Positions 9,692 to 9,910 of a stretch of DNA of 64,000 bases are shown in pieces. This stretch comes from Mobula birostris. Its lineage: Eukaryota. Position numbers and translations under genes: made by a program. Location: NCBI RefSeq assembly GCF_030028105.1, contig NC_092397.1:24748630-24812629 (forward strand), given 5' to 3'. Within the stretch, counting starts at the first letter, position 1. Every line of letters starts with the position of its first letter. The notes beneath the pieces are model-generated. The model was not told the origin of the DNA. It saw nothing but the letters and a program-made list of their open reading frames with translations, and searched no databases.

Positions 9692-9910
9692 GCAAACGCG
9701 AGGATATCTGCAGATACTGCAAATTCAAGCAACACACACACAAAAGTGCTGGTGAACGCAGCAGGTCAGGCAGCGTCTATAGAAAGAGTTACAGTCGACG
9801 TTTCGGACCGAGACCCTTCGTCAGGACTCGCCCGAAACGTCGACTGTACCCCTTCCTATAGATGCTGCCTGGCCTGCTGCGTTCACCAGCATTTTGTGTG
9901 TGTGTTGCAG
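9692..9910. mobile_element. Penelope-derived fold-back insertion with 11-bp TSD
   Basis: TSD AGATTACAAGT at 9681-9691 and 9911-9921; imperfect inverted arms of about 75-80 bp (9728-9806 vs 9832-9908). Confidence 0.9.
9793..9828 (-). ncRNA. Minimal type I hammerhead ribozyme motif (core intact)
   Basis: Minus strand AGTC-CTGACGA-A-GGGTCTCGGTCC-GAAA-C-GTC-GACT: stem I AGTC/GACT, CUGANGA and GAAA cores, GUC cleavage triplet, palindromic ACGT mini stem III. Confidence 0.8.

Follow-up and report, generated by a model that had tools for sequence, protein, structure and literature searches.

A 36-nt motif on the minus strand at 9793-9828 of a 64,000-nt stretch of the Mobula birostris genome (NC_092397.1, 24,748,630 to 24,812,629; below, the window, with coordinates counted from its first letter) raised the question of whether it is a genuine hammerhead, which element it belongs to, and whether this copy could still cleave. 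Minimal hammerheads in the pLTRs of Penelope-like elements (PLEs) are already known, massed as single copies and opposite-strand pairs (PMC4209133), and the finding as posed is ordinary annotation. Our main reading, held at a probability of about 85%, is that the motif is the pLTR minimal hammerhead of an abundant endonuclease-bearing (EN+) PLE, and that the 9793 copy lies in a head-to-head stub whose predicted fold shuts the ribozyme, likely leaving it inert. The scale matters for the repeat libraries of cartilaginous fish, with roughly half a million motif-bearing arms. Cartilaginous fish were not named among the hosts of minimal hammerheads in the accessible portion of PMC4209133, and searches of the open literature gave no report of hammerheads in elasmobranch retroelements.

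The motif is a minimal type I hammerhead

Element positions were numbered with C17 as 0, which is window position 9797, the predicted cut site. Read on the minus strand, the motif runs through the 5' strand of stem I, CUGACGA, one extra A, stem II, GAAA, CG, UC, and the 3' strand of stem I. Stem II is made of G-C, G-C, G.U, and U.G pairs with a loop of 4 nt.

9793-9828, minus strand: minimal hammerhead motif of type I, with C3 at 9824 and the cut predicted to follow C17 at 9797

The first-pass annotation had listed ten copies of the motif in the window, and all of them were found in place. The core was intact in four (9351, 9793, 17859, and 41560), and the core together with stems I and II in two, both as that annotation had it. 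A structure-descriptor search, which demands helices I and II besides the bare core, had just two matches in the window, 9793 and 41560, and 0 in each of 50 shuffles. The bare CUGANGA...GAAA core pattern was not enriched in the window (12 matches vs 7.0 ± 2.8 by chance). The Rfam search of the window gave no hammerhead at E ≤ 5; the minimal form has no helix III. The motif showed the CUGANGA and GAAA boxes, a UH cut site, and helices I and II, as well as the extra nucleotide 9.1 and the palindromic 15.2-16.2 of minimal type I hammerheads, in agreement with the vestigial palindromic stem III proposed earlier. The motif is a genuine hammerhead of the minimal type I, and it sits in the pLTR at the 3' end of an endonuclease-bearing PLE, where it had been placed.

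A tRNA-derived SINE was rejected as the source of the repeat, since Rfam tRNA matches were found at 5820 and 7807 only and none on the repeat. The repeat was colinear with the 3' end of the PLE.

The parent element is an EN+ PLE

The proposed Penelope-like origin held, as remnants in the window matched P0001 at its C-terminus. P0001 is an open frame of 1,014 residues elsewhere in the genome, with RT followed by a C-terminal GIY-YIG. In tblastn with P0001, the two GIY-YIG remnants reported upstream of the motif were recovered, with 70% identity across 43 aa at 57820-57692 and 51% across 39 aa at 53935-54039, and a third was found at 34682-34777. P0001 has DKG at residue 419, YIDD at 660, GVIY at 917, and YIG at 931, a CX4CX2C linker at residue 881, and a GIY-YIG with CCHH. 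Pfam matched RVT_1 at E 1.6e-5 and GIY-YIG at E 0.0025, neither score reaching the curated cut-off, and the closest named relative by identity was a Chiloscyllium protein (72%).

Genome searches with the GIY-YIG C-terminal pieces returned 191,637 and 39,230 first-look candidates, many of them with long frames. The hammerhead unit lay about 300 nt past the ORF end in 20/20 loci, which had been picked for long frames. ORF 5' ends were preceded by a same-strand pLTR piece in 28/30, and the element tail ran on into the ORF leader. At one locus (L133), an inverted truncated copy, a tandem truncated copy, the ORF, and the pLTR followed one another. Thus a single ORF with a PLE-type RT and then GIY-YIG was accompanied by partial pLTR tandems, an inverted 5'-truncated copy, an optional tail, and a target duplication, as in C-terminal EN+ PLEs. 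A CX2-5CxxC linker between RT and EN marks Neptune/Nematis (PMC8557442), and by this linker the parent element, a C-terminal EN+ PLE, is putatively of that type.

Inverted pLTRs, tails, and palindromic junctions have been described before (PMC3846280, PMC8557442). The Mobula element shares with Neptune/Nematis the RT, the Zn-finger-like linker motif, the GIY-YIG with CCHH, partial tandems, the inverted 5'-truncated copy, a tail of 30-40 bp at one end, and target duplications of 8-13 bp (PMC8557442, PMC3846280), whereas most Mobula insertions have shrunk to 100-250 bp. An internal tandem duplication of ~210 bp, which encodes a proline/serine-rich repeat, was also seen in the N-terminal part of the ORF (L131, L134, L135, L141, and others).

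The motif is very abundant and mostly decayed

The very high copy number claimed for the repeat was confirmed by 6,161 exact matches of the 34-nt motif genome-wide, with 0 in the reversed control. In a 1.29 Mb sample (129 fixed-coordinate stretches, each of 10 kb, kept from 130 after one that was all N was left out of densities), there were 263 profile matches, 166 of them across the hammerhead, and again 0 in the reversed control. The element made up 5.7% of sampled bases, and the window proved typical of the genome, as had been supposed. Scaled to 4.0 Gb, this suggests about 500,000 hammerhead-spanning copies. Among 132 sampled arms across the motif, the core was kept in 64, and the core with both stems in 32, of which 11 had G10.1-C11.1. 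Substitutions were concentrated at CpG.

The motif resembles the min-HHR of metazoan PLEs (Cervera and de la Pena 2014, PMC4209133) in being type I with a short helix I, an extra nucleotide between 9 and 10.1, G10.1-C11.1, and a palindromic 15.2-16.2 without a loop, in its pLTR location, and in occurring mostly as single dispersed copies with nearby opposite-strand pairs. In contrast, the Mobula copies far exceed the 4,000-9,000 reported for coelacanth and Xenopus, although the search methods differ, and helix II here has 4 bp. A further difference was seen in the youngest ORF-bearing subfamily (L231-L260), where the usually invariant G10.1-C11.1 is replaced by G.U, with U at 11.1 in the upstream pLTRs. 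This suggests a relaxed demand on cleavage.

Among 11 aligned copies from the Mobula birostris genome, two-sided stem covariation was found in 0/9 pairs. We also examined 80 distant relatives from metagenome contigs (28-63% identity), in which the descriptor gave 30 sense matches in 27 loci, 1 antisense match, and 0-1 in shuffles. These 27/80 relatives had unrelated yet paired stems, the pairing being itself required by the descriptor, together with the extra nucleotide 9.1 and a palindromic stem III. Since the same architecture came with different paired stems, the hammerhead architecture appears to be conserved across the clade.

The 26 best genomic matches to the 9793 region were all on the window's own contig. 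Fifteen of the 26, in the same orientation as the window copy and including it, were 94-100% identical along 2.4-3.2 kb of adjoining sequence, and the flanking stretches printed for the remaining 11 matched too. From this shared flanking sequence, the 26 near-identical copies are best taken as duplicates of the histone-cluster unit, not fresh insertions, and selection on the copy in the histone cluster was rejected on the same ground. C2.1 was changed in four of the 26, breaking a stem I pair. At least 26-28 near-identical copies of the window's histone and tRNA unit were seen in both orientations over >20 Mb of the contig (about 19-43 Mb).

The 9793 copy is predicted to be folded shut

Self-BLAST showed that 9793 is the centre of a 180-bp palindrome (9729-9908, arm identity 87%), which the first-pass annotation had overlooked. 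The palindrome is a single insertion, because an 11-bp target-site duplication brackets the whole of 9692-9910.

9681-9691: target-site duplication, left copy, 11 bp
9692-9828, minus strand: direct pLTR arm, -31 to +104, including a tail of ~36 nt (about 9692-9728), 86% identity to the young subfamily reference
9830-9908, plus strand: inverted pLTR arm, -11 to +67, without tail, joined head to head to the direct arm
9911-9921: target-site duplication, right copy, 11 bp

The minus-strand transcript of the insertion was predicted to form one hairpin (-162 kcal/mol, z = -19), within which helices I and II of 9793 had a probability of 0.00. The direct arm alone likewise scored 0.00, and RNAcofold on the 9793 unit predicted no dimeric hammerhead fold. 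For the 41560 copy, even alone, the stem I strand was predicted to pair with the mutated stem II, hiding the CUGAUGA box, while the young-subfamily stub retained stems I and II in its lowest-energy predicted fold. All of these are nearest-neighbour predictions, which handle 5-bp helices poorly. The predicted hairpin of the head-to-head insertion would thus sequester the 9793 cut site, and the motif is not expected to act as a free ribozyme.

The first-pass annotation took some copies to be still competent. A wider reading, in which host transcripts are cleaved by many dispersed copies, 9793 and the one close to H1 among them, we regard as highly unlikely. In its favor, the core and both stems are formally intact in the 32 sampled arms described above, the 36-mer alone is predicted to form stem I with a probability of 0.6-0.83, and the motif has the 6,161 perfect copies noted above. 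However, the loopless stem III calls for a partner, and no adjacent same-strand partner for dimer cleavage was present in the window. Monomers of the minimal hammerhead showed no cleavage in vitro and dimers only low cleavage (PMC4209133), and a published minimal hammerhead required the protein of its element (PMC11167929). The lack of two-sided covariation among the aligned copies, the concentration of changes at CpG, and the segmental duplicates with a broken stem I pair also stand against it. The claim that 9793 or 41560 is still competent was therefore not borne out, given the predicted sequestration of the former and the alternative hairpin of the latter. Dispersed copies in general are likely inert, because they have no stem III loop, no tandem partner, and in palindromes a sequestered site, and because of the published monomer result.

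Other copies in the window

Six insertions in the window were head-to-head pairs, a pairing overlooked in the first-pass annotation. Besides the 9692-9910 insertion, the copies were as follows.

4584-4896, minus strand: 5'-truncated copy, 3' UTR and mutated hammerhead, without tail
6133-6274: head-to-head pair, core decayed
9306-9445: head-to-head pair, arm -27 to +59 (core present, stem I lost) and arm +36 to +95
17795-17893, minus strand: solo stub -30 to +68 with an intact core and a broken stem III palindrome, flanked by a 9-bp duplication
34682-34983, plus strand: C-terminal remnant of GIY-YIG with a portion of the 3' UTR, hammerhead not detected
41524-41669: head-to-head pair, arm -31 to +39 on the minus strand (core intact at 41560-41595, predicted misfold) and arm +19 to +83 on the plus strand
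53212-53306, plus strand: solo stub -36 to +57, G12 changed to A
53935-54389, plus strand: decayed copy truncated at its 5' end, with a C-terminal remnant of GIY-YIG, the 3' UTR, a mutated hammerhead, and the tail
57020-57208: further decayed head-to-head pair, absent from the earlier list
57288-57820, minus strand: copy truncated at its 5' end, with a C-terminal remnant of GIY-YIG, the 3' UTR, a mutated hammerhead, and the tail, flanked by a 9-bp duplication
59271-59379, minus strand: stub -5 to +103, truncated inside the hammerhead, 9-bp flanking duplication
63709-63943: head-to-head pair, arms -23 to +67 and -27 to +101, both cores mutated

The ribozyme copy noted near H1 does sit about 580 bp upstream of an H1-like frame (the 41560 copy), but this proximity carries no signal, because the repeat recurs about every 8 kb and the H1-like frame seems to have no start codon. 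In this frame (40250-40990, minus strand, with a histone stem-loop), ATA stands at the expected start codon (about 40977), and the first in-frame ATG, at 40816, would remove the N-terminal part. The frame is possibly a pseudogene copy.

Clustering of 5' ends at the hammerhead front edge

In the 1.29 Mb sample, 35 pairs were head-to-head and 0 were tail-to-tail. The tail was on exactly one arm in 34/35 palindromes and on both arms in none (p = 2e-9), and the 3' ends of sampled copies were bimodal, near +66 and +102. Among young arms (≥ 90% identity; older copies, for which the alignment can stop where the subfamilies diverge, were excluded), 26/54 of the 5' ends fell at -36 to -19, the front edge of the hammerhead. 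The end rate per nt there was 0.034, compared with 0.0029 at -9 to +30 (p 5e-11) and 0.0021 at -300 to -61 (p 2e-14). The cluster was common to tailed and untailed arms. A second set of 45 independent arms, drawn from the first 40 listed sites of the young 40-mer on one contig and blind to ends at the cut site, gave 13/38 ends at -36 to -27, and eight arms of the window itself start at -36 to -25. The ends spread over about 15 nt, which is wider than expected from a single start site, and no extra cap-derived G stood out at the junctions on inspection. 5' ends defined by cleavage were rejected, as only 1 young end lay at -3 to +3 and 1/28 upstream pLTRs ended at +1. No report of a 5' end cluster at the ribozyme edge was found in the literature covered here.

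A second broad cluster of 5' ends was seen at about -270 to -380, around the ORF stop codon (9/28 upstream pLTRs, 5/45 arms), and could be another RNA start in the pLTR. Target duplications often overlapped the GU-rich 3' end and the 5' end of the element by 1-4 nt (L273, L284, L285, L289), hinting at microhomology at both junctions.

Run-off of reverse transcription at an RNA 5' end near -31 has, in our judgment, roughly even odds of explaining the main cluster. It is possible, though we lean against it, that the pile-up marks no RNA end and that reverse transcription instead halts where the 5' half of the hammerhead is structured or occupied by protein. Candidate structures are a dimer whose stem I pairs in trans and, in the young subfamily, an upstream hairpin that covers the CUGA box. 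A stop would fit the breadth of the peak with its shoulder at -22 to -19, the 5' edge of stem II, the hairpin predicted in the young subfamily between about -46 to -34 and -27 to -16, the read-through by about half of the young copies, and the protein-assisted folding reported for a ribozyme of this type (PMC11167929). However, the identical sequence in upstream pLTRs of ORF-bearing copies ended at -36 to -19 in 3/25, compared with the 26/54 stubs (Fisher p = 0.002), which argues against a fixed stall per passage, although the comparison is weakened because ORF-bearing copies stem from the most processive reactions. The older subfamily had the same peak, and the upstream hairpin is not predicted there. 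Polymerases usually pause on helix entry, which would here be near +5, and this also counts against a stop.

Two other explanations concern the nature of the stubs. Splicing might use the AG before the hammerhead as its 3' site, as it does in Penelope of Drosophila virilis, so that the stubs would copy spliced or splice-related RNA. A branch-point-like heptamer, a polypyrimidine tract, and CAG/UAG do lie immediately upstream in both subfamilies, and the D. virilis intron end has been placed at helix I (PMC4209133). We consider this unlikely, because a sense upstream exon was present in 0/82 arms ending at -45 to -15 (37 had an inverted arm, 45 flank) and many ends include the AG itself. Contigs of four sequencing runs had a depth profile dominated by the stub, with no interpretable splice joint and no clean GT-AG; joints at -31 in them were left unused, as the two subfamilies begin to agree there. 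The palindromes and stubs could also be a non-autonomous family (MITE-like, SINE-like, or retrozyme) copied as a unit, in keeping with their uniform length of 100-135 bp, the very high copy number, similar junctions at the unlinked loci L027-L030, and one junction type that recurs at L286 and L290. This reading was largely refuted and is most improbable: junction positions vary by locus, either arm can bear the tail, lengths form a continuum up to long 5'-truncated copies, the ends are unlike those of a cut-and-paste element, and no tandem arrays of the unit, which retrozymes require (10.64898/2026.07.22.740005), were seen. Retrozymes derived from pLTRs are known, including in one chondrichthyan genome (10.64898/2026.07.22.740005). 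Non-LTR retrozymes share with the Mobula copies the type I hammerhead, the origin from a PLE pLTR, and the absence of coding sequence (10.64898/2026.07.22.740005; PMC7229834), but their units are arranged head to tail in tandem, with two or more intact ribozymes, whereas the Mobula copies are solo or head-to-head stubs. Head-to-tail units with intact hammerheads were absent from the window and were not noticed among the sampled matches.

A possible route to the inverted, tailed insertions

On the run-off reading, uncleaved element RNA would serve as the template for cDNA. The element protein would nick both target strands, and cDNA would be primed at two internal start sites on the RNA. Both cDNAs may then run to or near the RNA 5' end at about -31 and be joined through 1-4 nt of microhomology, so that the outcome would be either a solo stub or a palindrome with a target duplication around it. 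The ribozyme would likely act in source elements only, as a dimer or with the help of protein, and dispersed copies would decay neutrally, mostly at CpG. More specifically, and only as a tentative proposal that we put somewhat below even odds, the stubs may be strong-stop-like cDNAs, with RNA starting at the first base of stem I and cDNAs primed at +66/+102 on both nicked strands and run off its end. In such a scheme an initiator-like YCAGT at -31 or -35 would mark the RNA start, and transfer of the cDNA to the downstream pLTR would account for the tail at the 3' end and for the partial tandems. If so, the genome would preserve the Penelope replication cycle as a fossil map, and the ribozyme would stay uncleaved while insertion takes place.

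The bimodal 3' ends and the one-tail pairs fit the two RT start sites and two-strand nicking of the anole Poseidon element PAc (Frangieh et al. 2024, PMC11167929), in which two internal start sites likewise define an optional tail, the RNA template is uncleaved, and the hammerhead lies at the pLTR-ORF junction. The two elements differ in that the Mobula element has the CX2-5CxxC linker, which Poseidon lacks, and in that its hammerhead is about 140 nt before the first in-frame ATG, whereas that of PAc spans the ATG. The end cluster at the ribozyme edge is not described for PAc in the accessible portion of PMC11167929. Self-priming was proposed in PMC3846280, but the rule of one tail per palindrome speaks for two separate priming events instead. 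Together with the front-edge cluster and the near absence of cut-site ends, this rule provides countable genomic footprints, which give specific predictions for 5'-end mapping and in vitro reverse transcription, and which bear on the ribozyme role and on how Penelope elements build inverted, tailed insertions.

Further features of the window

The two Rfam tRNA matches (5820-5891, plus strand; 7807-7878, minus strand) comprised a strong one with a CAU anticodon and a weak tRNA-like one. A weak seventh histone stem-loop was found at 15074-15120 on the plus strand, with no long histone ORF listed alongside. Two 46-bp tandem repeat arrays, at 1323-1854 and 53429-53886, were 88% alike and in opposite orientation.
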